32,000 nt of DNA. It comes from an uncultured Alphaproteobacteria bacterium (GTDB taxonomy: Bacteria > Pseudomonadota > Alphaproteobacteria > Rs-D84 > CACZYB01). The notes beneath the pieces are model-generated. The model saw nothing but the letters and a program-made list of their open reading frames with translations. It was not told where the DNA came from and ran no database searches. The DNA lies in the NCBI GenBank assembly GCA_934246625.1, contig CAKQHZ010000001.1:600001-632000 (forward strand), given 5' to 3'. A program made the position numbers and the translations under genes. Shown piece by piece: positions 15,095-31,967 of this stretch. Position 1 is the first letter of the stretch. Every line of letters begins with the position of its first letter.

Positions 15095-15769
15095 ATGCGT
15101 AAGCCTTTATCTAAAAAAGAACAACGAGAAGTTTGTGAATTTGTAAAAAATGAATTGGTAAATGGTAAAATCCTTAAGGATATTCTTTCAGAAATAACTG
15201 AAACTAAAGGTATTTCTTCTTCTGAAGTATATTCTTGGAATAAAAAGTTTGGTATGATTTTTGAAAATAACAGTTTTTCAGATGAAGAACGACTTTGTGC
15301 TTTGGAAATGGTTGTTGAAAAAATGTTGTTTGGTATTTTACTTTCCGTTGCCGTTAATGATGTTGCAAAAAAGTTTGATATTGATAAGCGTACTATTTAT
15401 AAATGGAATAGAAAGTTTAAAATTTTTGAAACTTCAAAAAAATTTAGTATTGATGAAAAAAAGGTTATTTGTGAAGAAATTAAGGATATGATAATTGCTG
15501 GTGCACCAACATCTTATGCAGTTAGTGTTTATGCTGAAGATTTAGGAATTACAGTAAAAAGTATTTATAATTGGAATCAAAATTTTCATATTTTTGAAGT
15601 GCGTGATTATTCCAAACGTAAATCTTCTTTTTCCTCTGAATTTATTAAAATGGTTGTAAATGAGGCTATTATTGTAGGAAAAGGTGAAGAAAAGATAAAT
15701 GCAATTGCAAAGAAATATAATATATCTCCAACTACTGTGTATAAATGGAGAAGAGATTTTCAAAGATAG
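15095..15769 (+). CDS. Protein made of four tandem transposase-type helix-turn-helix repeats, no catalytic domain
   Basis: Four units of about 55 aa end in SSEVYSWNKKFGMIFE, KRTIYKWNRKFKIFE, VKSIYNWNQNFHIFE and PTTVYKWRRDFQR. Each is preceded by an FS..E...(I/V) helix, as in IS3-type OrfA N-termini. AAGGAG RBS is present. Confidence 0.6.
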   Translation: MRKPLSKKEQREVCEFVKNELVNGKILKDILSEITETKGISSSEVYSWNKKFGMIFENNSFSDEERLCALEMVVEKMLFGILLSVAVNDVAKKFDIDKRTIYKWNRKFKIFETSKKFSIDEKKVICEEIKDMIIAGAPTSYAVSVYAEDLGITVKSIYNWNQNFHIFEVRDYSKRKSSFSSEFIKMVVNEAIIVGKGEEKINAIAKKYNISPTTVYKWRRDFQR

Positions 15770-18233: not shown

Positions 18234-18309
18234 GGGTGTTTAGCTCAGCTGGTAGAGCAACTGACTTTTAATCAGTGGGTCACAGGTTCAAGTCCTGTAA
18301 CACCCACCA
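18234..18309 (+). tRNA. tRNA-Lys (anticodon UUU), CCA encoded
   Basis: Hand-folded cloverleaf. Acceptor GGGTGTT/AACACCC, D arm GCTC-AGCTGGTA-GAGC, anticodon arm ACTGA-CTTTTAA-TCAGT (anticodon TTT), variable loop GGGTC, T arm ACAGG-TTCAAGT-CCTGT, discriminator A, then CCA. Confidence 0.9.
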
Positions 18310-18343
18310 AAAATCAAAAGGCTTCCGAAAGGGAGCTTTTTTT
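18301..18343 (+). repeat. Direct repeat copy 1 (tRNA-Lys 3' end plus terminator)
   Basis: cacccaccaaaaatcaaaaggcttccgaaagggagcttttttt. The 27-nt core aaaaggcttccgaaagggagctttttt is identical at 18316-18342, 24422-24448 and 31940-31966. Confidence 0.9.
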
Positions 18344-18345
18344 AT
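18318..18345 (+). terminator. Intrinsic terminator after tRNA-Lys (also the core of the thrice-repeated att-like sequence)
   Basis: aaaGGCTTCC-gaaa-GGGAGCttttttt. Stem with one G-T pair, GNRA loop, 7-T run. Confidence 0.7.
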
Positions 18346-18808
18346 TTTCCACAACGCTAGGCAGTTTCTAGTCTTTCTGGTCAGTGGCGCATTTAGAAAA
18401 ATTTCGTACTTTTTCAAAAAAATACAATTTTAGAGTCATTTTTCTCTCTATTTTCTATGTTTTTTAGATTCTACTGATCCACTCCTCTAAAACACCTAAC
18501 TATATGAATTTACGAGTAAAATAGTTAGTGGGTCAATAGATTTTTAGAGAAATGTTAAGTATATGATTTTACAATGTTTTATTTTTAGAAAAATCTTAAA
18601 ATTTGTCAAAAATGATGCGTTTTTAGGGGATTTTTTTATCCCATTTTTTACATTTTTAGATTCTATTGACCCACTGATATAAAATACCAATATATTTCAT
18701 TAAAAACGGAGATAGTTGTGATTATTCTACATTAGTTCAAAAAAATTTTTTTATTTTCGCTGGAATTAAAACAGACTAATAAAAGTATATTAATTCCAAT
18801 TTATTTAC

Positions 18809-18837
18809 TTGCTTTTGTTTATGGATAAAATTATAAT
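18809..18837 (+). promoter_or_regulatory. Candidate sigma-70 promoter for the cassette-1 operon
   Basis: TTGCTT (18809-18814), 17-nt spacer, TATAAT (18832-18837). The ATG is at 18871. Confidence 0.4.
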
Positions 18838-18870
18838 TTTGTATAATTTTAGAATAGCAGGTAAAGTAAT

Positions 18871-19401
18871 ATGTTTATTAAATTAAAAAAATATATAACA
18901 GATATTTTGGAATCTATTGAAGAATATCCATTTTTCTTTTTTTGTTTTTTTCAAATAATTTTTTTTATTTGGTTTTATAAGATACCGTTATTACATAATT
19001 ATATTTATAAATTAATTACTCCTAGTGAAATCTACAAGGATATAATAACTACAATAGCATCTTTTGATGGAATATTATACTCTTTATTTTTTACTGAATT
19101 TTTGAGTAAATATAAGGAAATTGGTCAAATATATTCTGATAACAAATATGTTATGAAAAAAATAAAAAAAATAATTTTGAAATTTACTTCACTGGTTTTA
19201 TTCAATTTTATAGTAGCTTTATTTTGTTTACATAAGTTTGATAAAGATTTATTTATTGACGCAAAATATATGTTTATATTATTTTTGAATTTTGCTTTTG
19301 TCGTTACTTTTTACTATTTAAATTTTGGAAAAATGAATAAAATGTATTCTACTAAATATCTTATTGAAGGTTTAAAGGAGAATATTGATGAATATTTTTA
19401 A
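18871..19401 (+). CDS. Small multi-pass membrane protein (orphan)
   Basis: There are 3-4 hydrophobic segments (FFFFCFFQIIFFIWF, ITTIASFDGILYSLFF, LVLFNFIVALFCL, FILFLNFAFVVTFYYL). The stop overlaps the next gene's start by 14 nt. Confidence 0.5.
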   Translation: MFIKLKKYITDILESIEEYPFFFFCFFQIIFFIWFYKIPLLHNYIYKLITPSEIYKDIITTIASFDGILYSLFFTEFLSKYKEIGQIYSDNKYVMKKIKKIILKFTSLVLFNFIVALFCLHKFDKDLFIDAKYMFILFLNFAFVVTFYYLNFGKMNKMYSTKYLIEGLKENIDEYF

Positions 19402-21445
19402 AAAGAATTATAATAATTATTATGAATATATAGATAATTTATTAAAAATATTTGAAAATTCTGTAAAATATTTTTATACAAGTAAAAATTCTTTGGTAAT
19501 TACTGATGAAACATTTAAGGAAATTTTATCTAAAATAATAGATATATATAAGAAAATTTTAAATAGCCCTAAAAAAGAATTGCATTATAAAGAGACAAAA
19601 ATTAAAGATGATGTAAATTCGAACTTTTATATTCTGTTTAACCAGGATCAGTATATTGAAACTGTTAAGATTTTAAAAACAATATTTGATATATACCAAT
19701 ATTTATGTGATAATAATGATAAAGATTTAAAAGAAAAAATTCATTATACAATATATGATTTATTACTTTTTTCTTCATCGAAAGAAGATAATCAAGCCGA
19801 GGTCAATTATATATTGGACCGATTATTTTTATGTATGTTGTCTGATAAAAATACATTAACTATTTATTATAATTTTTACACAATTGTATTCGATAGATTC
19901 CGACAAGAAAAATTTAATAATATATATTTAACTTCATTTAATAAATATGCTTTAAATATTTTAAAGCACCTATTAGATATAGATAACATGAAAGCTTTTA
20001 AATGTGTCGTAGATATTTCAATAAATAAATCTATGGATATTTATGATTCATACGGGGAAAATATAGATAAATTAAAAATAAATAAATTTAGAGAATTATT
20101 TTTAAAAACTACTTCTTTTGCTTTATATAAAAAAAATTATGAAGCTTTAGATATTCTATTTAATTTTCATACCCCAAAAGATTACACTGTTTTCTGGGAG
20201 AATAAAGATATTTTACCACATTCTTTAAAAGAAGTTTTTGAATGGGTATATAATAACAATATATGGGTAGAAGAATTAGAAGATCATCATGGTATAGCAT
20301 CTTATTACGAAAAATTAATATATTTATTAATATTAAGAGCTTTATATAATAACAATAATATTAGTAAGGATACTATAAATTTAAGAGATTTAGAAAATAT
20401 TAATTTTTCAGATTTACATAGAATACAAAAATTTAATTTAAAAGCATTAAAAGATTTTCATCCAAATACGAAATATAATGAGAAGGATTTAGAACAATCC
20501 GAAAAAGAGGTTCTTTCTGTAGTTAATGATATATTTAACAATAATAAGTTATTGGATATTATTGGCATAAATGAAGATAATATAGATAAAATTAAAAATG
20601 AATTTATTGACGCTTTAAAGATAATTTCAAAATTAGCCAATGAAATGGAAATAAATATCATAAAAAAATCACAATGCTCAAATGAAAAAATAAATAATGT
20701 AAGAAACGAAATATTTAAAAATTATCAAAAAAATAATAATTTATTATCAATATTTAACCAATATAATTTGATTTCAAATGATTATTATAATAATTTTGAC
20801 ACTTCATATATTGGTTATAATGTAGCCCTTTCTAAAGAAATATTCATTGACAATTATGGGGTTTCATTTGTCGGTATGGAAGCTGATTTTTCAGAAGGAA
20901 TATATCGAAGAGAGAATTTAATAATATTAGATGAAGTCAGGAAAAAAGTTCAGCAAAAATATTTAGAAGATTTGGAAAATGTAATAACTAAAAGTGAAAA
21001 TAAAGAAGATTTATTTATTATTTTAAATTATGCTGATTTATTTAATTTAAGATCATTACAAAAAACAATGAATATAACATTAAAGGATAAATATCTATTT
21101 TCAGAAGAAGAAAAAAATACATATAAAGAATTTAATCTAAATAATTTTGTTGGTATTTTAATGTGTAATAATATTTCTATTCCTGTCTACTCTTGTTTTA
21201 TGGGAGACAATAAGTCACAATTGTTTTTATTATCAAAAAATAGAGAAAAATTTGGAAGTGTCATAGAATATATATATAATGGTGAAGATAAAGAATATTT
21301 TGATGAACAAACAAAGTTATTCTGTAAATTATCAGAATTTGAAGATAAAAAAAGAGTTTTATTACAATTATATAAGAAAATAGATATTAATCTATCTGAT
21401 AGTTTTGAAGGATATATGATATCGTTAAAAGATACAGTATACTAG
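19388..21445 (+). CDS. 685-aa orphan protein, N/K/I/Y-rich, no recognisable motif
   Basis: Long uninterrupted ORF in very AT-rich DNA. AAGGAG (19375-19380) lies 7 nt before the ATG at 19388. It is translationally coupled to the upstream membrane protein gene. Confidence 0.6.
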   Translation: MNIFKKNYNNYYEYIDNLLKIFENSVKYFYTSKNSLVITDETFKEILSKIIDIYKKILNSPKKELHYKETKIKDDVNSNFYILFNQDQYIETVKILKTIFDIYQYLCDNNDKDLKEKIHYTIYDLLLFSSSKEDNQAEVNYILDRLFLCMLSDKNTLTIYYNFYTIVFDRFRQEKFNNIYLTSFNKYALNILKHLLDIDNMKAFKCVVDISINKSMDIYDSYGENIDKLKINKFRELFLKTTSFALYKKNYEALDILFNFHTPKDYTVFWENKDILPHSLKEVFEWVYNNNIWVEELEDHHGIASYYEKLIYLLILRALYNNNNISKDTINLRDLENINFSDLHRIQKFNLKALKDFHPNTKYNEKDLEQSEKEVLSVVNDIFNNNKLLDIIGINEDNIDKIKNEFIDALKIISKLANEMEINIIKKSQCSNEKINNVRNEIFKNYQKNNNLLSIFNQYNLISNDYYNNFDTSYIGYNVALSKEIFIDNYGVSFVGMEADFSEGIYRRENLIILDEVRKKVQQKYLEDLENVITKSENKEDLFIILNYADLFNLRSLQKTMNITLKDKYLFSEEEKNTYKEFNLNNFVGILMCNNISIPVYSCFMGDNKSQLFLLSKNREKFGSVIEYIYNGEDKEYFDEQTKLFCKLSEFEDKKRVLLQLYKKIDINLSDSFEGYMISLKDTVY

Positions 21446-21541
21446 TAGATAACTTATAAATTTAACTAAAATTTTTATATTTGCATAATTTGTATTTCTG
21501 ATATAGATATATTCTATATATCAAAAACAAGTGAGGTTGAT

Positions 21542-21637
21542 ATGAAGATGTTCTTTTTGTGGTGTATATTCTTTACAAATTTCCCGCTTTGGTTGTTTTG
21601 GTACATTTTTTTACGTAATAATAATTCTAAAAAGTAA
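21542..21637 (+). CDS. Possible 31-aa hydrophobic, Trp/Phe-rich mini-protein (MKMFFLWCIFFTNFPLWLFWYIFLRNNNSKK)
   Basis: GTGAGGT Shine-Dalgarno-like sequence (21531-21537) lies 4 nt upstream of the ATG. The ORF ends 8 nt before the zinc-ribbon nuclease ATG. It is below the ORF-track length cutoff and was read by hand. Confidence 0.3.
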   Translation: MKMFFLWCIFFTNFPLWLFWYIFLRNNNSKK

Positions 21638-21645
21638 GATAATTA

Positions 21646-24009
21646 ATGATAAAAAAACACTTATCAGAAATCAAAGAGTTAATGCAAGAATGGGATTATG
21701 AAGCTAATAAAGATTTAGATCCTACAAAACTTACTGTTGGTAGTAAAGAAAACGTTTTATGGAAGTGTTCAAAATGTGGTTATCATTGGCATGCTATGAT
21801 TAATAGGAGATATAGTAATCATACTGGATGTCCTGCATGTGCAAATAAAGTATTTGCAAAAGGGTATAATGATTTAGAAACAATATATCCAGAAATAGCA
21901 AAAGAATGGCACCCAACAATGAATGGAAATTTGACTCCAAGTGATGTTAAACCAGCAAGTCTTAATCGTGTATGGTGGTTATGCCCAATTTGTAATAATG
22001 CTTACCAAAAAAGAATTATGGATAGAGTAAAAAAGGGATCTAAATGTAATAAATGTTGTGATCCTAAAGTAATACAGGGAAAAAATGATATTGCTACAAA
22101 ATTTCCAGATTTATTAAAGGAATGGAATTATGAAAAAAATTATCCATTTTTACCACAAAATTTTTCTTATGGAAGTACAAGAAAATTTTGGTGGAAATGT
22201 TCAAAATGTAATTATGAATGGATGGCTACAGCTTTAAATAGAAATAATTCAGGTTTTGGATGCCCAGTATGTAAACAATCTTCTGGTGCAATAAAAGGAT
22301 TAACAGATTTAGGAAAAACACATCCTGAACTAGCTAAAGAATGGGATTATGAAAATAATAAAAATCTAACACCAGAACAAGTTAAAGCAGGTTCAGGAAA
22401 AAATGTATGGTGGAAATGTCTTAAATGTCATTGCTCCTATAAAACACAAATAATTGCGAGAGTTAAAGGCAGAGGTTGTCCGAATTGTAAAGATACAGGA
22501 GTTGTAGATGGATTTAATGATTTTCAAACATTATATCCAAATCTTGTAAAAGAATGGCATCCAACAAAGAATACTAAAAAGCCAAATCAAATAAAATCGA
22601 AGTCTAAGTATAATGCTTTTTGGATATGTCCAACATGTGGATTAGTTTGGCAAGCACCTGTGGTAAGTCGAGTTGTCCAAGGGAGAGATTGTCCTGCATG
22701 TAATGATACTTCATTAGTTCCTGGAGTTAATGATTTAGCAACAAAATTTTCTGAAATTGCAAAAGAGTGGCATTCTACTAAAAATGGAGATTTAACTCCA
22801 AAAGACGTAAAATATGGAAGTCGTAAAAAAGTATGGTGGAAATGTTCTGTATGTAGTAAAGAATGGGAAACAACTATTGATAGTCGAACAAGACAATTAT
22901 CTGGTTGTCCTCGATGTTTAAATTCGAAACAAACATCATATCCAGAACAAGCGATTTATTATTATGTTCAACAAATATATCCAGATGCTATTAATAAATA
23001 TAAAGCTGATTTTTTAGGAAGAATGGAACTAGATATTTTTATTCCATCAATTAATTTTGCAATTGAATATGATGGTGAAGCTTGGCATAGAGAAAATAAG
23101 CGTTCAATGGAACAAAGAAAATATAAACTTTGTCAAAATAAAGGGATTAAACTTATAAGAATTAGAGAAAAACTTACATCTTTAGGTTGTGAAATTTCTG
23201 ATGATCAGATAGGTATTGTTAAATTAAATGGTAAAAATAGTTTGGAAGAAACAATAAAATATTTAATTAATAAAATTAATTTTACAGGCAAAAATATTCA
23301 TGTCGATTTAATAAATGATGAAATGTTAATTCGTTCATTATGTCATGGGAATCCTAAAGATTCTTTAGAAAAATTATTTCCAGAATTAGTTTGTGAATGG
23401 CATCCAACATTGAATAAAGATTTGAAACCTGAAAATGTATCATGTGGATCTAATCTAAGAGTTTGGTGGCTATGCCCTAAATGTAGCCAATCTTACAAAG
23501 CATCTATTAATCATAGAGTAAAAAGTAAATCAGGTTGTCCGGTATGTTCAAATAGGAAAGTAGCAACTGGAATTAATGATTTATTTACTACAAATCCGGA
23601 TTTAGCTAATGAGTGGCATCCAACAAAAAATGGAAGTTTAACACCTCATGATGTTACATATGGTTCAGGCAAAAAAGTTTGGTGGTTATGTCCTAAATGT
23701 AAATATGAATGGTTTCAAAGTGTAAATAGAAGAACTTCGATGAAATTAGGTTGTCCTTGTTGTACGGGAAAAAAATTAATAGTTGGTAAAAATGATTTAG
23801 CAACAGAATGTCCAGAATTAGCAAAAGAATGGCATCAAACTAAAAATGGAAATTTATCTCCAAAAGATGTAAAAGCAGGAAGTCATTTCCCTGTATGGTG
23901 GAAATGTTCTGTATGTGGTAATGAATGGAAAACAGATATTAGGTCAAGAGTAAAAGGACGGAAGTGTCCTAATTGTTCTAAAAAACAATTAAAACTAGAT
24001 TTAAAATAG
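21646..24009 (+). CDS. Nine-fold zinc-ribbon repeat protein with central Vsr/DUF559-like PD-(D/E)xK nuclease domain
   Basis: Nine repeats of about 70 aa follow the pattern EWH.TKNG.L.P.DV..GS..KVWW.C..C..W...I..R.....GCP.C. Six precede and three follow a core at about 22936-23170 (ELDIFIPSINFAIEYDGEAWH...QRKYKLCQNKGIKLIRIRE). Confidence 0.8.
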   Translation: MIKKHLSEIKELMQEWDYEANKDLDPTKLTVGSKENVLWKCSKCGYHWHAMINRRYSNHTGCPACANKVFAKGYNDLETIYPEIAKEWHPTMNGNLTPSDVKPASLNRVWWLCPICNNAYQKRIMDRVKKGSKCNKCCDPKVIQGKNDIATKFPDLLKEWNYEKNYPFLPQNFSYGSTRKFWWKCSKCNYEWMATALNRNNSGFGCPVCKQSSGAIKGLTDLGKTHPELAKEWDYENNKNLTPEQVKAGSGKNVWWKCLKCHCSYKTQIIARVKGRGCPNCKDTGVVDGFNDFQTLYPNLVKEWHPTKNTKKPNQIKSKSKYNAFWICPTCGLVWQAPVVSRVVQGRDCPACNDTSLVPGVNDLATKFSEIAKEWHSTKNGDLTPKDVKYGSRKKVWWKCSVCSKEWETTIDSRTRQLSGCPRCLNSKQTSYPEQAIYYYVQQIYPDAINKYKADFLGRMELDIFIPSINFAIEYDGEAWHRENKRSMEQRKYKLCQNKGIKLIRIREKLTSLGCEISDDQIGIVKLNGKNSLEETIKYLINKINFTGKNIHVDLINDEMLIRSLCHGNPKDSLEKLFPELVCEWHPTLNKDLKPENVSCGSNLRVWWLCPKCSQSYKASINHRVKSKSGCPVCSNRKVATGINDLFTTNPDLANEWHPTKNGSLTPHDVTYGSGKKVWWLCPKCKYEWFQSVNRRTSMKLGCPCCTGKKLIVGKNDLATECPELAKEWHQTKNGNLSPKDVKAGSHFPVWWKCSVCGNEWKTDIRSRVKGRKCPNCSKKQLKLDLK

Positions 24010-24023
24010 ATTTAGAAATTTTA

Positions 24024-24057
24024 ACTTCATAGTTTAGGATTATGCAAACTATGAAGT
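24024..24057 (+). terminator. Possible hairpin terminator after the zinc-ribbon nuclease gene (no clear U-tract)
   Basis: ACTTCATAGTTT-aggattatgc-AAACTATGAAGT, a perfect 12-bp stem. Confidence 0.35.
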
Positions 24058-24368
24058 ATAAGCAATAATCATATCCAAATTATAGTAACCAAGAACTTCT
24101 TTCTATATTTTTTTTAAAGCATGATTTACGACAGTTGCAAAATTTGCAGTTATCGAGTTTTCTGCAAATTAGCCATCATTAAAGTGGAAAACTAGTTACG
24201 AATGGTATAGGATTAGTATTCTCCCAACCAAAATAGAGAATTTTAGAAAATTTGAAAAAAAATGATGAATATGGTAAAACACTAAGAAAACTCTATATTG
24301 GAGCAGTTTTCGAGAATAGTTATGAATGGTATAGGATTAATATATAGTCGAAATGGATTGACCGATTT

Positions 24369-24448
24369 CTGCGGTTTAGAAATTGTTCGGGAATGGATAT
24401 AAACCCCCCACCAAAAATTCAAAAAGGCTTCCGAAAGGGAGCTTTTTT
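24369..24448 (+). repeat. Direct repeat copy 2: degenerate tRNA-Lys 3' fragment plus exact terminator copy (att-like junction)
   Basis: ctgcggtttagaaattgttcgggaatggatataaaccccccacca resembles the tRNA from the anticodon arm to CCA. It is followed by aaaattcaaaaaggcttccgaaagggagctttttt. Confidence 0.8.
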
Positions 24449-24693
24449 CTTTGCCTATAGACCCTAGATTCTTCCTAGTGTAATAATTAGAGATAATCTA
24501 TAAGTTATTTAGAAATTTCTTTTTAAGCATTTTCTCTCTATTCTCTATGCTTTATCCGAAGAACGCCTTATGTATTTGAATATACTTAATTTTATAACTG
24601 CGGATACAATAGAAAAGTTGTAGAAAATCTGTGGAGTAGCAAAAAGTATCAAAAAACTAGCTTATGATCTACAGTTTTAAAGGTTTATTTTCC

Positions 24694-24721
24694 TTGAAAG
24701 TAGTTTTTATAGGAGTATAAT
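24694..24721 (+). promoter_or_regulatory. Candidate sigma-70 promoter for the first cassette-2 operon
   Basis: TTGAAA (24694-24699), 16-nt spacer, TATAAT (24716-24721). Confidence 0.4.
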
Positions 24722-24752
24722 ACATCTTATGTATAATAAAAAGGATGTCAAA

Positions 24753-25043
24753 ATGGCTGCAAATTTCAAAAGAAAAGGAAATGAACTTAGAGATATACAT
24801 ACTCGTCTTATTGGAAAAATTGATGGTAAATATATTCGTGATGCACATGCTTGTCTTATGGGCAAAATTGATGGAATGGATGTAAAAGATAAACACGGTA
24901 TAAAAATTGGTCGTTTAGATGGGGATTACATTCGAGATGTACATAATGTAAAAATTGCAACAAGAAAAGATTTAATAAAGTCAATAGATGGAACAACAGG
25001 TGGTATTGAAGATGTCGCTCTATATTTGTTTTTTGTAAGATAA
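24753..25043 (+). CDS. Small protein with four 16-aa repeats (resembles '4-fold beta-flower' proteins, from memory)
   Basis: The repeats are NELRDIHTRLIGKIDG, KYIRDAHACLMGKIDG, MDVKDKHGIKIGRLDG and DYIRDVHNVKIATRKD (nt 24780-24971). I prefer the ATG at 24753, with AAGGA 7 nt upstream, because the ATG at 24729 sits only 7 nt after the predicted -10. Confidence 0.6.
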   Translation: MAANFKRKGNELRDIHTRLIGKIDGKYIRDAHACLMGKIDGMDVKDKHGIKIGRLDGDYIRDVHNVKIATRKDLIKSIDGTTGGIEDVALYLFFVR

Positions 25044-25062
25044 ATTTTAAAAAGGGGGCAAA

Positions 25063-25770
25063 ATGGAAAATAAAAAAGAAACAAAGATAGATAATTTTTT
25101 AGCATATATTGCTGGTATATGTGCATTTATTGGTATATGTGCGATAGTTTATAAATTATATCTTTTTGGATTTACAAGAGAAAATATTGCTGATGCTTCA
25201 ATAAATCTTGCACAAATTTTAACAAGTATTGGTGTCTTGTTTGGAGTTCTTTCATCACTTAGAACTTTATTAAAATGTCCTAAAAGTTATTTTTTTAAGG
25301 AGTTAGAAAAGTGGAATAAAAAATATGGTATATTAACAGATTGCAGCGAAGAATATGAAAAAGGTAAGGGAAAATTTATTAAATGCCAAATGTTGAGAAA
25401 TCATGCAAATATATTAAAAAATAAAGATAACCTTGAAGAACATTCAAAGGCATATATAAATTTTGTTAGAATTCCAACAGAAAATTTAGATGGAAATAAA
25501 ATAATTTTTTCTTTAAAACCATCAATGTTTAAAAAAAATGACAGAAAAGAACTTGAAAAATATGCTGAAAAAATAGTTGAAAAATTAAAAATAAGATATA
25601 GCGAAATTATTGATGATGACAAAGTTAAAATTTCATCTTTTGACAGAAAAGATGAAGTTATATATATTCATCTCGGATTAAACAGTGAATTAGATAATAA
25701 AAAAGAAATTTACAATCAAATCATAGATATGCTTGATTATATGACTATGGTGTATCTTGCAATAGCTTAG
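25063..25770 (+). CDS. Two-TM membrane protein with about 165-aa cytoplasmic K/E-rich domain (orphan)
   Basis: Strong RBS AAGGGGG before the ATG. TM1 is FLAYIAGICAFIGICAIVYKLYLF and TM2 is LAQILTSIGVLFGVLSSL. It starts 19 nt after the preceding stop. Confidence 0.55.
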   Translation: MENKKETKIDNFLAYIAGICAFIGICAIVYKLYLFGFTRENIADASINLAQILTSIGVLFGVLSSLRTLLKCPKSYFFKELEKWNKKYGILTDCSEEYEKGKGKFIKCQMLRNHANILKNKDNLEEHSKAYINFVRIPTENLDGNKIIFSLKPSMFKKNDRKELEKYAEKIVEKLKIRYSEIIDDDKVKISSFDRKDEVIYIHLGLNSELDNKKEIYNQIIDMLDYMTMVYLAIA

Positions 25771-25859
25771 TTTAATTTATTCAATACATTGCATCGTAAG
25801 GATAGTATATTGAATGGTTCGTGTAAACTTTTTAAATAAAAATAATAAGAAGTGTAAAA

Positions 25860-26420
25860 ATGAATAAAGAAAATATAATATCTTTTTATGTTGAAATAAT
25901 AAAATCGATATTGGAAATCTATAGATTAAATCAAAATAAAAATACTCAAAAAATTACCAAAAGAATTTTAAATTGGATTATTCGCGAATATAAGGGAAAA
26001 ATAAAATTATATGCATCAGAAGATGCAATAAAATGGGCAAAAAGCCAAGGTATTAATGATAACCTTTCAAATTATAATTGGAAAGATCAAGTAAAAAAGA
26101 AAGAAAAAGGTGGTCTTGGGGATAAAAAAAGAGAAAATTTACATCTTGAACATATTATTCCTATTTCTCAAATAATAGAAAATTTATTTGAAACAAAAAC
26201 TTCCAATAATATACAAAATATATTAAATGAAATTTCTGTTGCTTGGATTAAAAGGGATCAACAACAAAAATTAGATAAAGGACATAAAAAAGAAAGAGGT
26301 GAAAATTTAAAAAAATGTTTAGAATGTTGTAAAGAATATTGTGGTGAATTGACAGAAATTGGTGAGTACAAAGTACCTTTGGATTATGATAATGAAAGTG
26401 AAAAAAATGATATTTTGTAA
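25860..26420 (+). CDS. Hypothetical protein, possible His-Me finger (HNH/DUF1524-like) nuclease
   Basis: The only hint is LHLEHIIPISQ followed about 35 aa later by VAWIKRDQQQKLDKG, then a Cys cluster CLECCKEYC. The assignment is weak. Confidence 0.4.
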   Translation: MNKENIISFYVEIIKSILEIYRLNQNKNTQKITKRILNWIIREYKGKIKLYASEDAIKWAKSQGINDNLSNYNWKDQVKKKEKGGLGDKKRENLHLEHIIPISQIIENLFETKTSNNIQNILNEISVAWIKRDQQQKLDKGHKKERGENLKKCLECCKEYCGELTEIGEYKVPLDYDNESEKNDIL

Positions 26421-26676
26421 GTTTTTTATTTCTTTAACTGGCATATTAGGGTGTTTACAAATATCAAACTTACAAATTTCTTCATGCGTTAATTTTCTTT
26501 CTAATATTTTTGAAAGTTTAAAAGACAAAGAATTTAGAATAGAAATTGATAGATTGAATTTTATATTTACTCCAACTTTAAAAACTGGTTTTAACTTTGA
26601 TTTAGATTTTGATTTTAAATCATTTGATTTCGAAGTTTCATTATTAGGATTGGATTTAAAACTTAAACTTTGGTGA
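26407..26676 (+). CDS. Possible small exported protein
   Basis: MIFCKFFISLTGILGC looks like a signal or lipobox sequence. The C-terminus alternates hydrophobic residues and ends in an aromatic (VSLLGLDLKLKLW). The start is ambiguous (26359, 26392 or 26407). With 26407, it overlaps the upstream stop by 14 nt. Confidence 0.3.
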   Translation: MIFCKFFISLTGILGCLQISNLQISSCVNFLSNIFESLKDKEFRIEIDRLNFIFTPTLKTGFNFDLDFDFKSFDFEVSLLGLDLKLKLW

Positions 26677-26682
26677 TAAATT

Positions 26683-27015
26683 ATGTATTATTTAGATAAA
26701 GTTATTTACAAAAATTATAAAGATATTTTTCATTTAGAATTTTTTTTTGAATTAAAAAGATTTTTTGATATTTCTATAAACATTTTCAATATAATTAATG
26801 GTGGATTTTATATAAGAAATTATACAAAGCCAGATGATTTTTTCTATGATTCAAAACCAATTTGTTTGTATAAATTAAAAAATATTCATTTTAACTTTGG
26901 ATATAATAAAGATCTTTATACAGGTATGGAAATAGGAGATTATCTATCTAATTCAAAAAATAATTTTTATATTCAATTTGGAATTTTAGGATTGATATTT
27001 TCTATAGGTCAGTAG
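26683..27015 (+). CDS. Hypothetical small protein
   Basis: ORF of 110 aa starting 6 nt after the previous stop. Its C-terminal FYIQFGILGLIFSIGQ loosely echoes the preceding ORF's C-terminus. Confidence 0.3.
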   Translation: MYYLDKVIYKNYKDIFHLEFFFELKRFFDISINIFNIINGGFYIRNYTKPDDFFYDSKPICLYKLKNIHFNFGYNKDLYTGMEIGDYLSNSKNNFYIQFGILGLIFSIGQ

Positions 27016-27333
27016 GTAAAATATAATTTATTTCCGGATAAAATATATTTTCATTTGTTAGTGATTTTGTGGTAACAAATTTTATCTTGCTATTTTTGGG
27101 ATAATTACGATATGTTTGTCTAAAATGAGGCAGATAAAATGTGTAATTTTGATTTAAGAGAAATTGTTGAAGAAAATTTAAATAAAAATTTTGTTTTTTT
27201 TACTGGTTTTATACAAAAGATTTATATAAGATGAAGATTCCTGTGAATTTTTGTGATATTAACTTTTTTTTCTTTACATATAATATACTAAAAAATATAG
27301 TATGATTTATTCTTCTATATACAGGATTATGTT

Positions 27334-27663
27334 GTGTCAAAATTAAAAGAATTTATGGATATTGATGATTTATCTTCAGCAGATATTGTTGATTTCTTAT
27401 TTGGTAGTTTAAAACTATTAGAAAAAGACCCTTCTATTATTTCAAAGATAATTGATGACAGCAAAGATGGCAAAATATGTATGTATATTATTAGTAATCT
27501 TGAGGTACAAAGATGGGAACAAGTAGTATCAAAAAATGATAGAGCATTATGTATTAAATCTCTTAGATATTTATATAGTAAATTACCAAATGAACAAAAA
27601 AAATACTATAAAATAGAATTTTTTGATAAACACCCAGAAATTTTTGAAGGTCAAAACATCTAA
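27334..27663 (+). CDS. Hypothetical acidic 109-aa protein
   Basis: ORF with a GTG start (alternative ATG at 27355). It is convergent with pip and shows no recognisable motif. Confidence 0.35.
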   Translation: MSKLKEFMDIDDLSSADIVDFLFGSLKLLEKDPSIISKIIDDSKDGKICMYIISNLEVQRWEQVVSKNDRALCIKSLRYLYSKLPNEQKKYYKIEFFDKHPEIFEGQNI

Positions 27664-27734
27664 TGAAAAGATAAAGAATAGTATTTAATCCATCTTTTCA
27701 GTTAATTTCTTTATCAAAGCTATATGCTTTTTTA

Positions 27735-28640
27735 TTACAAAAATTCTTTTATCAACTTTGGCAAAAGTTTATTTTGTTTCTTGCTTCCATGACCAAAACT
27801 ATCAATAATATGCAAAGTTGATTTTGGCATAGCTTTGTGTAAAGTATATGCCTGTTCAAGTGGAGTACAGAAATCCAATCTGTTACCAATTATAAGTGTT
27901 GGAATATTTTTAATTTTGCCAATATTTTCGATAATTTCATTTTCTTTTATAAAATAGTGTTCTGTATAGTAATGCATATAAATTTTAAAGGAATTAACTA
28001 CCTTATCCCCCAGTTCTTCATCAAGATTTATTTTTAACTTACCAATTTGATAATCATAGTTTGTAAGATATTTTACAGTCTTTTTAATTTTAGCATTACT
28101 TTGCTTAAATAAATTTTCCAAATCTTTGTGAGTTTTTATAAGATATGGTGAAAGTTTTTCAATTATGTCAGGGTAGAACATCTTTGAATCTTTGTATGTC
28201 CAATTTGCATCTTTCTTCCTTGCTAAGAAAGTTTGTGATACAATTATTTTATCAACTAATTCAGGGTATGTTTCTGCAAACAAAAGTGCAAGTGTAGAAC
28301 CCCATGAACCACCAAAAGAAATTACCTTTTCTTTTATATTAAGGAAATCAAGAATTCTTTTTGCATCTTTAATTGTATCTTGAGTGGTATTTTTATAAAA
28401 TAAATCTTTAAATTCAGAATTTCCACAACCACGTTGATCAAAAATAATTACTTTATAATTTTTGAGATTACAACATTTTACATATTTAAATTTACTTCTT
28501 GCTCCTGGACCTCCATGAAAATTTAAGATGGTTTTCCCATTTGGGTTACCAAATACTTGGAAGTAAATTTTATGTCCATCAAGTTCGGGAAGATATCCTT
28601 TAAAAATAGCCTTTGGCTTATGTGAAAATATATGAAACAT
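27735..28640 (-). CDS. pip: Proline iminopeptidase (S33 alpha/beta-hydrolase)
   Basis: HGGPGA oxyanion motif, nucleophile elbow GGSWGSTLAL, a C-terminal His (SFGHG), about 300 aa. Confidence 0.85.
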   Translation of the reverse strand: MFHIFSHKPKAIFKGYLPELDGHKIYFQVFGNPNGKTILNFHGGPGARSKFKYVKCCNLKNYKVIIFDQRGCGNSEFKDLFYKNTTQDTIKDAKRILDFLNIKEKVISFGGSWGSTLALLFAETYPELVDKIIVSQTFLARKKDANWTYKDSKMFYPDIIEKLSPYLIKTHKDLENLFKQSNAKIKKTVKYLTNYDYQIGKLKINLDEELGDKVVNSFKIYMHYYTEHYFIKENEIIENIGKIKNIPTLIIGNRLDFCTPLEQAYTLHKAMPKSTLHIIDSFGHGSKKQNKLLPKLIKEFL

Positions 28641-28706
28641 TCTATTGCCTTTTTTTAATATAATATATAATTATTAACATAATATATAATTATTTCAAGG
28701 TGTTAA

Positions 28707-29816
28707 ATGAATAATTATAAAGAATTTGTATCTGAAATTTCTTCTTTTTTTAATTTAGAAAAAGTATCTGGTGAATATTTCCGATTTAAAGATCAAAAAA
28801 ATATTAGTAATTTCCCTAAACAATCTATTCATGAATATTTTAATGATGTTCCATTAATTCCTGCGGATAATGTCATAAGAACTGATGATAGTACAACGCT
28901 TTTTACATGTGCTGGAGTGCAACATATAGAAACAATGATAAAAAATAATGAAATTTTAAAAGATTTTAGTATTTATCAACCATCTATAAGAACTCAGTTT
29001 ATTGGTAAAACAAAAGAAGGAGTTTCTACATCTTTTGTTAATTTTTCTTCAACTATATTTAATATTTCGAATGATAAATTTTTAGATAAAACAAAAAGTT
29101 ATATTTCTTTACTTAATAATTATGGATACAATAATAATGATTTATTAGTTAGATTTGAAGAAAGATCTAATGCTTGGGGAACTAAAAAATTTACTACATA
29201 TGTTGCTAGTTTATATTATAATAATTTTAGAATGGGAGAATGTATTTTTATGAAATATTTTCCCATAAATTCAAATCAAGTTTCTAATATTATGGAAGTC
29301 GGATTTGGTCTAGAAAGAATGGAATGGTTATCAAAAAAAAATAATTATTATTTTTCTAGATACAAAGAAATTTATGATCAATTTAAAAATAATGATGTTT
29401 CTATTGATCAAATTACAACTATCATTGATTCTGTAAGAACTTCAATCTTAATTGCTGGTAATGGAATAGTTTCAAGTAATAATAATCATGGATATAGATT
29501 AAGACAGTTATTAAAGCATTTTGTTTTTAATAATGCCAATATATCAATACCTTTAAATAAATTAGAACGAATAGCATATGATGAATGGAAATCTAATACA
29601 TTCGTTCAGTATGATAAAATATGTGATATTATAGGAAAAGAAGTTGAAAGAAATGAACATGCATATTTATTAGATTTATTAAAGAGGTGTAATATAAAAA
29701 CAAATATAGATATAACATTACCAAATGATGCTTTTATAAGATCTTTAAAAAGTCGTATTTATAGAGAGAATACAGACGTGATATTAGATAAATTATTTAA
29801 AGAAAAGGTTAAATAA
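28707..29816 (+). CDS. Stand-alone alanyl-tRNA synthetase catalytic-core homolog (class IIc aaRS-like, no editing or C-Ala domains)
   Basis: Collinear matches to E. coli AlaRS as I remember it. TLFTCAGVQH aligns with LLFTNAGMNQF, QPSIRT with QRCVR, VSTSFVNFSSTIF with HHTFFEMLGNFSF, MEVGFGLERMEWL with VDTGMGLERIAAVL, and IIDSVRTSILIAGNGIVSSNNNHGYRLRQLLKH with [33 protein letters not shown]. It is only 369 aa. Confidence 0.8.
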   Translation: MNNYKEFVSEISSFFNLEKVSGEYFRFKDQKNISNFPKQSIHEYFNDVPLIPADNVIRTDDSTTLFTCAGVQHIETMIKNNEILKDFSIYQPSIRTQFIGKTKEGVSTSFVNFSSTIFNISNDKFLDKTKSYISLLNNYGYNNNDLLVRFEERSNAWGTKKFTTYVASLYYNNFRMGECIFMKYFPINSNQVSNIMEVGFGLERMEWLSKKNNYYFSRYKEIYDQFKNNDVSIDQITTIIDSVRTSILIAGNGIVSSNNNHGYRLRQLLKHFVFNNANISIPLNKLERIAYDEWKSNTFVQYDKICDIIGKEVERNEHAYLLDLLKRCNIKTNIDITLPNDAFIRSLKSRIYRENTDVILDKLFKEKVK

Positions 29817-30488
29817 ATGGGAGCTCTAATTTCTGATTTTTTATCTTACAAGCATTCTGTTTATGATGAAATTTCTGATTTATCAAAAAAAGAGATAGAT
29901 AATTTTTACTCTTTTATATTAGGTGGTGTAAAATTTAATAATTCAAGTCCTAAACTTATTATGATGTTGGGTATTAGTGGAGCGGGGAAAAGTACATTTT
30001 TTAATAATGCAAAGCAATATTATAAAGATTATGCTTTTTTATCAGGTGATGAAATTATGCATAATTTACAAATTTTTAAAGAATTAAAATTATTAAATAA
30101 ATCATCACATAATGATTTTCGAATTTGTGAAACAATTTCTAGAAAGCTATCATTCTATATTTTAGATTATTTAATTTCAAATAAAGCAAATATTTTTTAT
30201 GATTGTGGAGGTTTGGATTTAAATAAAAAAAATATGGTTAGATATATAAGTGATTTGGGATATAAAATAGAAATTAATGCTATTCTAGCAGATAAAAAAA
30301 TTGCTATCGATAGAGTAATAAAACGTCATTATAAAAATGGAGGTGGTTATATACCAGTTGATTTAATTGAACAAAATTTCAATGAGGTTTTACCAGCTAT
30401 TAATTATTATAAGCAATTTGTTGATAAGATAAATATTTATAACAATAATAATAAAATTTTTTTAGAAGAAACTTATATAAAAAGATAA
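29817..30488 (+). CDS. P-loop kinase, zeta-toxin/AAA_33-like
   Basis: Walker A MLGISGAGKST sits about 50 aa from the N-terminus, with IFYDCGG as a Walker-B-like strand. The size (223 aa) and layout fit small-molecule or nucleotide-sugar kinases. The ATG directly abuts the upstream TAA. Confidence 0.6.
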   Translation: MGALISDFLSYKHSVYDEISDLSKKEIDNFYSFILGGVKFNNSSPKLIMMLGISGAGKSTFFNNAKQYYKDYAFLSGDEIMHNLQIFKELKLLNKSSHNDFRICETISRKLSFYILDYLISNKANIFYDCGGLDLNKKNMVRYISDLGYKIEINAILADKKIAIDRVIKRHYKNGGGYIPVDLIEQNFNEVLPAINYYKQFVDKINIYNNNNKIFLEETYIKR

Positions 30489-30498
30489 GGAGTTTTAT

Positions 30499-31749
30499 AT
30501 GGATATTTGTATTTTTAATTCAAACACTAATGTTAATGCACAAGATTATGAAGTCGTTGAACGTAAAGGTATTGGCCATCCTGATACAATCTGTGATACT
30601 TTAGCAGAAAAGATAAGTGCTAATTATTCTCTATATACATATCAAAAATATGGACATATATTTAGACATATGATTGATAAATTATCTATTTTAGGGGGAA
30701 AAACAAAAGTTTATTTTGGAGGTGGAGAATTTATAAAACCTATAAGAATACTACTAAATGGACGATTTACTGGAAACTTCTGTGATGAAAAAATTCCATA
30801 TATTGATATTGCTACAGAAACTATTTATAAACATATGAAATTCCTATTTCCTATGATAGATTGTAAAAAAAATATAGAAATAATAGATAATACGCATTCA
30901 TCGCAAGGTCCTGGTGTTGTATACAAAAAAGATGGAACAACGAATAATGAACGTTCTAGTTTTTTTAACATAAAAAATGAAGCATTTATGCAATATCATA
31001 ATAATATGAATAGAACAAATGATACATCTACTACTGTTAGTTTTTATCCATATACAGTTCTAGAAAATGTTGTGTTATTTGTAGAAAATCAATTAAATTC
31101 TGAAGAATTTAAAAAGAAGTATCCTTTTGTTGGTAACGATATAAAAGTAATGGGAACAAGAATTGGCAAAAACATAGATATTACAACTTGTATACCTTTT
31201 ATTTCTTTATATACTCCTGATAAAAATTTTTACAAAGACAATATAAGCTTTTTAAAAAATCTTTTAATCAATATGTTATCAAAAAAATATTCGGATTATT
31301 CTTTTAATATTTCTATAAATACAAGAGATAATTTAGAAAACGATGATTTATATTTAACATTAACAGGAAGTGCTGTTGAAAGTGGAGATGAGGGGGCCGT
31401 TGGACGAGGTAATAGAAGTTGTGGATTTATTCCTTTTTGCCGTAATGTATCTTTAGAGGCTCCGTGTGGTAAGAATCCTGTATATCATACAGGGAAGTTA
31501 TTTACTGCTATTGGAAATATTATATCTAATAGAATTTATAGCCAAACAGGCATTGAAAATACTGTTTATTTAACAAGTCAGATGGGGGGTAAAATAGAAG
31601 AAACTTGGAAGATTGCTATTGGTTTAACAAATAGTCCTTCTATTTCACTAGAATTAAAAAATACAATTGAAGATATTGTAAATGAAGAGTTAAAAAATCA
31701 TAATAAAACTACACAAGATATAATTTTGGAAAAGATAAAATTATATTAG
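30499..31749 (+). CDS. Archaeal-type S-adenosylmethionine synthetase (MAT) homolog
   Basis: VERKGIGHPDTICDTLAEKIS, NDTSTTVSFYP, GNDIKVMGTR, LYLTLTGSAVESGDEGAVGRGNR and GKNPVYHTGKLF are collinear with M. jannaschii MAT motifs as remembered (ERKGLGHPDSICD, NDTSFGVGYAP, GEDIKVMG, TGTSAEMGDDGSVGRGNR, GKNPVNHVGK). AAGGAG lies 6 nt before the ATG. Confidence 0.85.
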   Translation: MDICIFNSNTNVNAQDYEVVERKGIGHPDTICDTLAEKISANYSLYTYQKYGHIFRHMIDKLSILGGKTKVYFGGGEFIKPIRILLNGRFTGNFCDEKIPYIDIATETIYKHMKFLFPMIDCKKNIEIIDNTHSSQGPGVVYKKDGTTNNERSSFFNIKNEAFMQYHNNMNRTNDTSTTVSFYPYTVLENVVLFVENQLNSEEFKKKYPFVGNDIKVMGTRIGKNIDITTCIPFISLYTPDKNFYKDNISFLKNLLINMLSKKYSDYSFNISINTRDNLENDDLYLTLTGSAVESGDEGAVGRGNRSCGFIPFCRNVSLEAPCGKNPVYHTGKLFTAIGNIISNRIYSQTGIENTVYLTSQMGGKIEETWKIAIGLTNSPSISLELKNTIEDIVNEELKNHNKTTQDIILEKIKLY

Positions 31750-31886
31750 ATAAAATTTAATATACTTAAGATTTATTCCTATGAAAATAATATTAAGTGT
31801 AGGCTAAATGACTTTTTATAGATGAGTTTTTTATGGTTGGTTTCGGTTATCCGAAATAGATTAGAAACCTGTAGAATAGCAAAAAG

Positions 31887-31967
31887 ACTGACTTTTAGAA
31901 AAGTTAGAGAAAGGTTCACAATCACCCACTAAAAATTCAAAAAGGCTTCCGAAAGGGAGCTTTTTTT
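31887..31967 (+). repeat. Direct repeat copy 3: degenerate tRNA-Lys 3' fragment plus exact terminator copy (att-like junction)
   Basis: actgactttta matches tRNA 18260-18270, aggttca matches 18284-18290, and cacccac matches 18301-18307. Next comes taaaaattcaaaaaggcttccgaaagggagcttttttt, one mismatch from copy 2 over 39 nt. Confidence 0.85.

Follow-up and report, generated by a model that had tools for sequence, protein, structure and literature searches.

Recombinase-less cassettes in tandem beside tRNA-Lys(UUU) of an uncultured gut alphaproteobacterium

Introduction

Several described genetic elements stand in tandem at a single chromosomal site, and the locus considered here can be compared with them: two AT-rich cassettes beside tRNA-Lys(UUU) in a 32,000-nucleotide stretch of an uncultured alphaproteobacterium (assembly GCA_934246625.1, contig CAKQHZ010000001.1, positions 600,001 to 632,000; hereafter the window). 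Cis-mobilisable elements (CIMEs) carry attL and attR without integration or transfer genes and occur in tandem with ICEs (integrative and conjugative elements) and IMEs (integrative and mobilisable elements) at the tRNA-Lys 3′ end of Streptococcus agalactiae (PMC5704250). By definition they arise through decay of ICEs or IMEs, and a functional ICE next to them mobilises them in cis (PMC5704250). The units described here are likewise arranged in tandem at a tRNA-Lys 3′ end, separated by att repeats, with att ends retained and no integration or transfer genes. Unlike CIMEs, they have no ICE, IME or integrase beside them in 10 alleles, nor does one lie in the 18 kb upstream or the 10 kb downstream, and they are small (1.6-7.5 kb), uniform cassettes with conserved arms in a Gram-negative-type alphaproteobacterial host. 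Neither ICE/IME core-gene remnants nor full-length relatives were found in 57 sources totalling 756 kb, an absence in a sample that does not amount to proof.

The tycheposons of Prochlorococcus islands encode a recombinase of their own, a tyrosine or more rarely a large serine enzyme, and in many cases a replication module (10.1101/2020.12.28.424599). The present locus shares with them serial integration at one tRNA, partial tRNAs as separators, newer units that push older ones inward, adaptive or defence cargo, and degenerated remnants. In contrast, it has no integrase or replication module, and in their place stands a conserved non-coding module of up to 0.5 kb. Additive core defence hotspots (cDHS) beside tRNA-type genes are known from Pseudomonas aeruginosa (PMC10250203) and Escherichia coli (PMC10121019), some without identifiable mobilisation. 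They, too, occupy a fixed site by a tRNA-type gene, are almost always occupied and carry defence-type cargo that is highly variable among strains. Here, however, the islands are much smaller, and the junctions can be read in every unit as a tRNA-derived arm, a short spacer and a left module.

Recombinase-less cassettes in an ordered array, with one attachment point, a conserved boundary element, variable cargo and apparent proximal insertion, also recall integrons. The differences are that no IntI is adjacent, that a tRNA gene is the attachment point, and that each cassette has a long 5′ non-coding module and several genes. No attC-type RYYYAAC...GTTRRRY pairing (R''/L''-L'/R' boxes) was seen at the junctions by eye, without an attC model. 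Staphylococcal cassette chromosome (SCC) and pseudo-SCC elements and the integrative mobile elements exploiting Xer (IMEX) form tandem units that partly lack a recombinase; the enzyme then acts in trans and is CcrAB in pseudo-SCC and the host's XerCD in IMEX. SCC targets the 3′ end of rlmH and IMEX targets dif, and the recombinases are known. In the present locus the target is the 3′ end of tRNA-Lys, and neither those targets nor those enzymes were seen; inspection of the junctions by eye alone revealed nothing dif-like.

Compared with elements that target tRNA genes in general, the locus has tRNA-3′-end direct repeats, an intact tRNA and an empty attB allele, and lacks an integrase of its own. 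Its distinctive feature is the presence of small, uniform, recombinase-less cassettes with conserved non-coding arms across several species of an uncultured lineage; its logic is that of CIME, tycheposon and hotspot accretion. The reading favoured here, held with about even confidence, is that a recombinase acting in trans serially and site-specifically integrated non-autonomous cassettes at the tRNA-Lys 3′ end, and that homologous recombination then reshuffled them.

A repeat confined to tRNA-Lys junctions

A 27-nt core, AAAAGGCTTCCGAAAGGGAGCTTTTTT, is found in three exact copies, at 18316, 24422 and 31940, against none expected by chance, and no further match with up to 3 mismatches exists in the window. 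The three copies bound cassette A (6.1 kb) and cassette B (7.5 kb) exactly as described in the original prediction, a reading of the window's sequence alone. Composition also changes at 18.3 kb: the 18 kb of backbone have a GC content of 0.322, cassette A has 0.250 (0.205 in its first 3 kb) and cassette B 0.242, so the break that had been proposed there is real. With its 11 pairs, GAAA loop and T-run, the core is an intrinsic-terminator hairpin. It had been taken as a repeat that runs past the tRNA into the terminator of the tRNA gene; it is indeed a terminator, but one that comes with the left module of each cassette, and other alleles have other hairpins in its place.

Identity among the three copies reaches left to CCCAC(C/T)AAAAAT(T)CAA, which is the only sequence common to all junctions; copies 2 and 3 have 74 nt in common at 81%. 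The spacer between the CCA and the hairpin reads AAAATC where the resident tRNA lies on the left and AAAATTCA where a cassette arm does. Because these two forms segregate by host side and arm side, the exchange probably takes place within or just after this 8-9-nt spacer, and AAAATCAA at junction 1 would be the crossover zone.

The core is an ordinary intrinsic terminator and short-read unitigs break exactly at it, which would suit a dispersed terminator, a repetitive extragenic palindromic (REP)-type element or an assembly artefact unrelated to integration. However, in the same-species sequence examined (the window, 12 alleles and L001, the same contig continued 10 kb past the window) it was found solely at tRNA-Lys junctions, always with a CCCACCA-type sequence ahead of it. 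Elsewhere, L057 offers only matches with at least 5 mismatches and viral contigs none. Empty and alternative alleles, moreover, break exactly at the repeat. An artefact is unlikely because independent assemblies from several samples give the same order of parts, with k = 141 contigs and independent-sample scaffolds crossing the junctions. The tie to tRNA-Lys that had been proposed therefore stands, and the dispersed-repeat explanation is barely credible. The suggestion that the array might continue past the window did not survive: it ends at copy 3, with no fourth copy in the following 10 kb (L001).

Empty, single and double alleles

Same-species alleles were gathered through their 99%-identical MltG and comprise ten arrangements with an identical left flank. 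In L026, the tRNA acceptor end is joined directly to the sequence that follows copy 3, with 98.8% identity over 9.8 kb; this allele is a precise empty site for the window array. L025 is emptier still, consisting of tRNA, hairpin and backbone. L030 has a single insert of 1.6 kb flanked by an exact 33-nt direct repeat of the tRNA end: at its left junction the tRNA is followed by a different, insert-borne hairpin, and at its right junction an exact copy of GGTTCAAGTCCTGTAACACCCACCAAAAATCAA precedes the hairpin of the host and the backbone of L025. L021 is L024 with a further 5.1-kb cassette next to the tRNA, and the same ~490-nt non-coding module lies on either side of that insert. Same-species strains supply the empty sites, and the series of empty, one-cassette and proximally extended alleles bears out the serial insertion at the tRNA-Lys 3′ end that the original prediction had proposed.

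The same alleles could be read without any site-specific recombinase, with left modules and right arms acting as portable homology for RecA-type swapping after DNA uptake or transduction, maybe stimulated by endonucleases (DUF4379/NUMOD, GIY-YIG). The ~490-nt modules that flank the extra cassette of L021 are near-identical, a 4-kb block has sharp homology breakpoints inside cassettes, DUF4379 genes occur in 4 cassette types from 3-4 species, and a GIY-YIG gene lies at the locus in L028, L031 and L032, all of which fit such swapping. Hotspots without identifiable mobilisation means are also known (PMC10121019, PMC10250203). Homologous exchange cannot, however, originate short tRNA-end direct repeats such as the exact 33 nt of L030, whose inner sides are unrelated. 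Arms taken from a different tRNA-Lys isoacceptor point instead to att-site capture, and several cassettes (B, D, E in L007) have no endonuclease-like gene. Portable homology as the whole explanation is consequently quite unlikely, and serial site-specific insertion is the preferred account of how the alleles arose.

The GIY-YIG genes of L028 (11150-13310) and of L031 and L032 (11150-13700) are LEM-3-like and lie with companions inside the backbone, after the host terminator. These insertions have no cassette arms and are a second insertion mode at the locus.

Conserved cassette ends

In all cassettes a terminator hairpin comes first, then a non-coding left module that is conserved, then cargo that varies and finally a right arm derived from tRNA. 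The left module ranges from 130 to ~500 nt. Its opening hairpin is the 27-mer in some alleles and an AAACCG...CGGTTT variant in others, and the motif series that follows runs TTTTCCGCAACGCTAGGCAGwTTCTAGCCTTTCT, ~60 variable nt, TTTTTsCTCTATTTTCTAyG. This consensus holds in at least 9 junctions from two species. The left module is ~90% identical between species whose MltG proteins are only 70-73% identical, and that of cassette A in particular (350 nt) is ~90% identical to those of L011, L014 and L015, which come from another species and carry different cargo. Cassettes A and B had been thought homologous over their starts. Both fit the family consensus and share its conserved ends, as members of one family, but their direct similarity is only patchy (TTTTCTCTCTATTyTCTATG in 19/20 positions; CTAG...CTAG).

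The right end consists of a GCAGATTTCTGC-like sequence, then TTTAGAAAAGTTAGAGAAA, a T-arm remnant and CCCACCA. The sequence AGAAAAGTTrTAGAAA, present in both arms and counted 3 times in the window where 0.13 would be expected, is a possible binding box. Ahead of copy 3 the tRNA-like sequence is clear, with ACTGACTTTTA followed by GGTTCA..CAATCACCCACTA (31887-31931); ahead of copy 2 it is weak and amounts to little more than CCCCCCACCA and an arm specific to the family. Neither segment gives an Rfam tRNA score at E<=1. Both had been described as decayed copies of the 3′ part of tRNA-Lys. The likeness to tRNA holds, more clearly for copy 3, but a copy of the resident gene does not fit. The 3′ part of the copy 3 arm equals tRNA-Lys(CUU) GGTTCA[AATCCC]CAATCACCCACCA minus six bases and does not match the resident UUU gene. 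The segment AAAGTTAGAGAAAGGTTCACAATCACCCAC ahead of copy 3 matches the right end of the L007 cassette in 29/30 positions; that cassette comes from a species with 72% identical MltG, and the hairpin after its arm is L007's own. Because the ends are conserved across species while the terminator differs even between strains, the copy 3 arm is a conserved, element-borne arm derived from tRNA-Lys(CUU) and not a decayed resident tRNA. Cassettes accordingly bring their conserved ends along, and the hairpin belongs to the left module and varies even within the species.

These arms bear directly on a CIME-like origin, in which the cassettes are remnants of former integrase-bearing islands or prophages at tRNA-Lys that lost their integrase and core genes, kept att scars, ceased to move by themselves and diversified through deletion and homologous exchange. 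The tRNA remnants of copies 2 and 3 are degenerate, as is the internal boundary in L022-L024, cargo is pseudogenised in several alleles, and phage-like Cro/C1 helix-turn-helix (HTH) and superinfection-immunity genes lie at the neighbouring tRNA-Lys(CUU). Such decay is also the documented route to streptococcal tandem arrays (PMC5704250) and to tycheposon-island remnants (10.1101/2020.12.28.424599). On the other side, the supposedly degenerate arm keeps 29/30 identity between two species, unlike the outcome of random decay, and no integrase fragment or core-gene remnant survives in about nine different cassettes. The layout is uniform and compact, with the left module leading straight into unrelated cargo and one cassette of only 1.6 kb, so the same clean deletion would have had to happen many times. 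A remnant origin is therefore rather unlikely, and conserved ends on non-autonomous cassettes remain the favoured interpretation.

Within the left module of cassette A, a 22-nt motif, TTTTTAGATTCTAyTGAyCCAC, occurs three times (18438-18695), twice directly and once inverted at ~18530-18551. The copies give a strong predicted hairpin, with an RNA fold z = -4.0. A 49-nt piece with the inverted copy is missing in L011 and present in L014 and L015. The module was considered as a structured RNA and rejected, as it has no Rfam match and the fold reaches significance in the window version alone, owing to the inverted motif inside it, but not in the L024 type. A viral origin of the repeats and arms was likewise rejected: viral contigs gave 0 matches to the 27-mer, the right arm and three left-module motifs, and the left module had no match among annotated phages and plasmids.

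L010, an empty-like allele of another species, has the right-arm box AGAAATGTTGTAGAGA between the tRNA CCA and the terminator (11106-11175), with no T-arm remnant. This box may be the scar of an old excision or deletion.

Cassette cargo

No protein family is common to all cassettes; the DUF4379 family alone recurs across cassettes of different cargo (Table 1). Its members, with or without NUMOD, are proteins of the phage homing/HNH endonuclease-like type and were found in four otherwise unrelated cassette types from 3-4 species. The 787-amino-acid (aa) member in cassette A matches Pfam DUF4379 (E = 8e-168), phrog_559 (E = 1e-53), and phrog_3339 and phrog_9084, both annotated 'homing endonuclease'. 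By these matches it resembles homing/HNH endonucleases, and it has relatives in 144 phage records. A sequence search of its central region against solved structures returned nothing significant.

The 4-kb block of cassette B is 98% identical in five alleles, including L021-L024, yet stands in differing cassette contexts. It may serve as a small-molecule or defence module. The block is partly pseudogenised in three alleles. PADLOC models gave no convincing match to the cargo of cassettes A and B.

Other alleles of the species (L022-L024, L028-L032) carry restriction-modification, GmrSD, HEPN, RhuM and GIY-YIG genes. At the same tRNA in other species, the cargo includes AAA_21 and RloB (L007), a KAP NTPase (L011), an HsdR-like gene (L014, L015) and a NACHT-like gene (L039).

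Table 1. Positions of the tRNA, junctions, cassette parts and related genes. Positions refer to the window unless a contig is named.
Feature	Position	Strand	Details
Intact tRNA-Lys(UUU), integration target (attB/attL left half)	18234..18309	+	ARAGORN; Rfam RF00005, 76.8 bits
Junction 1 (attL-like)	18303..18342	+	CCCACCA, spacer AAAATCAA, 27-nt hairpin copy 1
Cassette A left module, 528 nt, non-coding	18343..18870	+	Starts TATTTTCCACAACGCTAGGCAGTTTCTAGTCTTTCT; TTTTCTCTCTATTTTCTATG at 18440
Cassette A gene 1, 176-aa hydrophobic protein	18871..19401	+	Open reading frame (ORF) list; no match in four libraries
Cassette A gene 2, 685-aa protein	19388..21445	+	GC ~0.20; no assigned function
Cassette A gene 3, 787-aa protein (DUF4379, type A)	21646..24009	+	Nine DUF4379 treble-clef zinc-ribbon repeats and a central nuclease region
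Cassette A right arm	24355..24413	+	(C)GATTTCTGC, TTTAGAAATTGTTCGGGAATGG, ..CCCCCCACCA; right-arm alignment; diverged member of the tRNA-derived arm family
Junction 2 (between cassettes)	24407..24448	+	CCCACCA, AAAATTCAA, terminator copy 2; spanned by contig L051
Cassette B left module, 280 nt, non-coding	24449..24728	+	CCCTAGATTCTTCCTAGTG; TTTTCTCTCTATTCTCTATG at 24530; box AGAAAAGTTGTAGAAA at 24611; CTGTGGAGTAGCAAAAAG at 24629
Cassette B variable cargo	24729..27663	+	Bflower_2-like 104 aa, 235-aa membrane protein, 186-aa protein, ORFs of 94/110/109 aa
Cassette B recurrent 4-kb block	27734..31767	.	Four genes
4-kb block: prolyl-aminopeptidase-like hydrolase	27735-28640	minus	
4-kb block: truncated alanyl-tRNA synthetase (AlaRS)-like protein	28707-29816		369 aa
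4-kb block: zeta-toxin-type kinase	29817-30488		
4-kb block: archaeal-type S-adenosylmethionine (AdoMet) synthase	30499-31749		
Cassette B right arm, tRNA-Lys-derived pseudo-arm	31861..31931	+	AGAAACCTGTAGAATAGCAAAAAG, ACTGACTTTTA, GAAAAGTTAGAGAAA, GGTTCACAATCACCCACTA
Junction 3 (attR-like)	31925..31966	+	CCCACTA, AAAATTCAA, terminator copy 3; backbone resumes at 31967
DUF4379 member, cassette type C	L021 11649-12812		
DUF4379 member, cassette type F	L011 14754-15425		
DUF4379 member, cassette type H	L039 8406-10157		
Mpi-family small serine recombinase	L057 9794-10588		Window species, contig of L022
Mpi-family small serine recombinase	L010 17885-18650		
Mpi-family small serine recombinase	L007 8015-8626		

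Search for a recombinase

No recombinase domain was found in the ORFs of cassettes A and B with Pfam, NCBIfam, PHROGs or PADLOC, in agreement with the original prediction that neither encodes a tyrosine or serine recombinase. The further idea that the enzyme lies just beyond the window fails, with none in the 10 kb downstream covered by L001. Nor was one found in about nine cassette types, the 10 same-species alleles, three other species sets or the 18 kb upstream. A phmmer search of 2,847 ORFs (57 sources, 756 kb) with a single E. coli XerD query, a search of limited reach, returned no XerD-like protein, and the Pfam tables of L021-L058 list no tyrosine recombinase.

The only recombinases in the 756 kb are two related small invertase-type serine recombinases (L007, L010), to which a window-species homologue on the contig of allele L022 is added (Table 1). 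The L007 gene abuts the tRNA-Lys(CUU) terminator and the L010 gene lies beside a partial tRNA 3′ end and terminator. An Mpi/invertase-family small serine recombinase encoded elsewhere might move cassettes by acting on the terminator palindromes: these are the sole recombinases at hand, two of them beside tRNA-Lys-type junctions, and the 27-nt core is an imperfect palindrome the size of a hix or gix site. However, the hairpins vary among alleles, and the loop differs even between the two copies in L007. The window-species gene lies roughly 55-65 kb from the island, has no att or arm motifs nearby and is next to a 94-nt promoter-like segment with inverted repeats AAACTACCGTCTAT and ATAGACGGTGGTTT; it looks like a phase-variation invertase with an invertible promoter, and one homologue is named "master DNA invertase". 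Small serine recombinases of such size also normally act within one DNA molecule, and their involvement here is very improbable.

Two further leads were rejected. Unitigs L048 (6,126 nt) and L003 (7,542 nt) have the length of the cassettes, but they just start and end inside the repeat and are no evidence of circular forms. In the backbone, a resolvase-type HTH match belongs to a 224-aa protein (15095-15769) that consists of four transposase/resolvase-type HTH repeats in tandem and lacks a catalytic domain, and the other unannotated backbone proteins have no recombinase domain. The gene for the HTH-repeat protein lies two genes upstream of the tRNA in all strains of the window species.

Assembly model and significance

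The region is read here as an additive genomic island that would have grown through repeated cassette insertion at the 3′ end of tRNA-Lys(UUU) in a low-GC gut alphaproteobacterium. Each unit comprises a hairpin that re-terminates the tRNA, a left module, cargo chiefly of defence or nuclease type, and a right arm that derives from tRNA-Lys and ends in CCCACCA. In the circular form of a cassette, attP would consist of the right arm, CCCACCA-AAAAT(T)CAA (CCCACCAAAAAT(T)CAA), the hairpin and the left module, and it would recombine with the same short sequence at the tRNA end (attB). The recombinase acting on CCCACCAAAAATCAA would come in trans, from the host or from a helper element. Each insertion would keep the tRNA intact, place the newcomer next to it and move older cassettes outwards; in the window strain, cassette B (7.5 kb) would have come first and cassette A (6.1 kb) second. 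Later, homologous recombination between near-identical left modules and within cargo would shuffle and delete cassettes, and whole alleles were probably exchanged between strains through the conserved flanks.

Several points weigh against this reconstruction. No recombinase, circular junction or excision product was observed, so the cassettes are only putatively mobile today. In copies 2 and 3 the T-arm is degenerate, so cassettes A and B may be immobile if the recombinase needs the T-loop, where the L030 repeat starts. The window strain has three identical hairpins, whereas other alleles have different ones; a crossover strictly to the left of the hairpin does not predict such identity, which would need gene conversion or a crossover to its right. 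The mosaicism of the cargo, seen in the contexts of the 4-kb block and in the L022-L024 boundary, shows that much of the variation comes from other recombination. Inspection covered only ~10 kb on each side of the locus, and the contigs of the longest arrays (L022-L024) break before the distal ends, on the glycosyltransferase side too.

A more ambitious version would make the locus a tRNA-anchored platform, integron-like without an adjacent integrase, at which purpose-built recombinase-less cassettes are captured and released at CCCACCA-AAAATCAA by a dedicated host or helper recombinase in several gut alphaproteobacterial species, forming a swappable defence locus in these small genomes. This version is possible, though on the doubtful side.

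How defence islands assemble without a visible mobility gene is an open question in the P. aeruginosa and E. coli hotspots (PMC10250203, PMC10121019). At the present locus, readable ends together with empty, one-cassette and two-cassette alleles make a rule of assembly legible, namely tRNA-proximal insertion through a short spacer after the CCA. If mobilisation in trans is correct, the cassettes would be a compact recombinase-less vehicle for defence genes in poorly known gut bacteria, and their conserved arms would provide a handle on further cargo and on the missing recombinase. Should the units be no more than scars, the locus still offers a clean natural case of accretion with homologous reshuffling after it.

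Host and flanking genes

The window backbone encodes ClpX, RuvA, TrcR, a 693-aa RpoD, FabF and MltG. The closest genomes are uncultured "Alphaproteobacteria" metagenome-assembled genomes from animal and human guts, with MltG 70-73% identical; a metagenome scan based on MltG added two short related loci only. The tRNA-Lys(UUU) gene lies 3′ of MltG in all six related species (6/6), with a terminator hairpin that differs per species. Past copy 3, L001 continues with a pair of secreted-protein genes, genes for a Cro/C1-type HTH protein and for superinfection immunity, a convergent tRNA-Lys(CUU) and then a glycosyltransferase cluster. The convergent tRNA-Lys(UUU) and tRNA-Lys(CUU) genes enclose the island (L001 14485-14560; L025 11041-12007) and are 815 bp apart in the barest allele.

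The pair of secreted-protein genes (L001 11469-13688, from window 31967) is an extra indel that is absent in L025 and L030; it has terminators at its bounds, without a tRNA-like arm. The second of the pair shares 52% identity with the gene in second place after the tRNA-Lys of L010.

In the clade formed by L007, L009 and L012, the two tRNA-Lys genes are divergent and 2.5 kb apart (L007 8668-11109). Both carry the same terminator in L007 and in L009, and their outward flanks are variable when L007 is compared with L012. Upstream in the window, the minus-strand gene at 9308-10564 encodes a backbone protein without a family match whose length varies from 396 to 427 aa among strains that are otherwise 98-99% identical.

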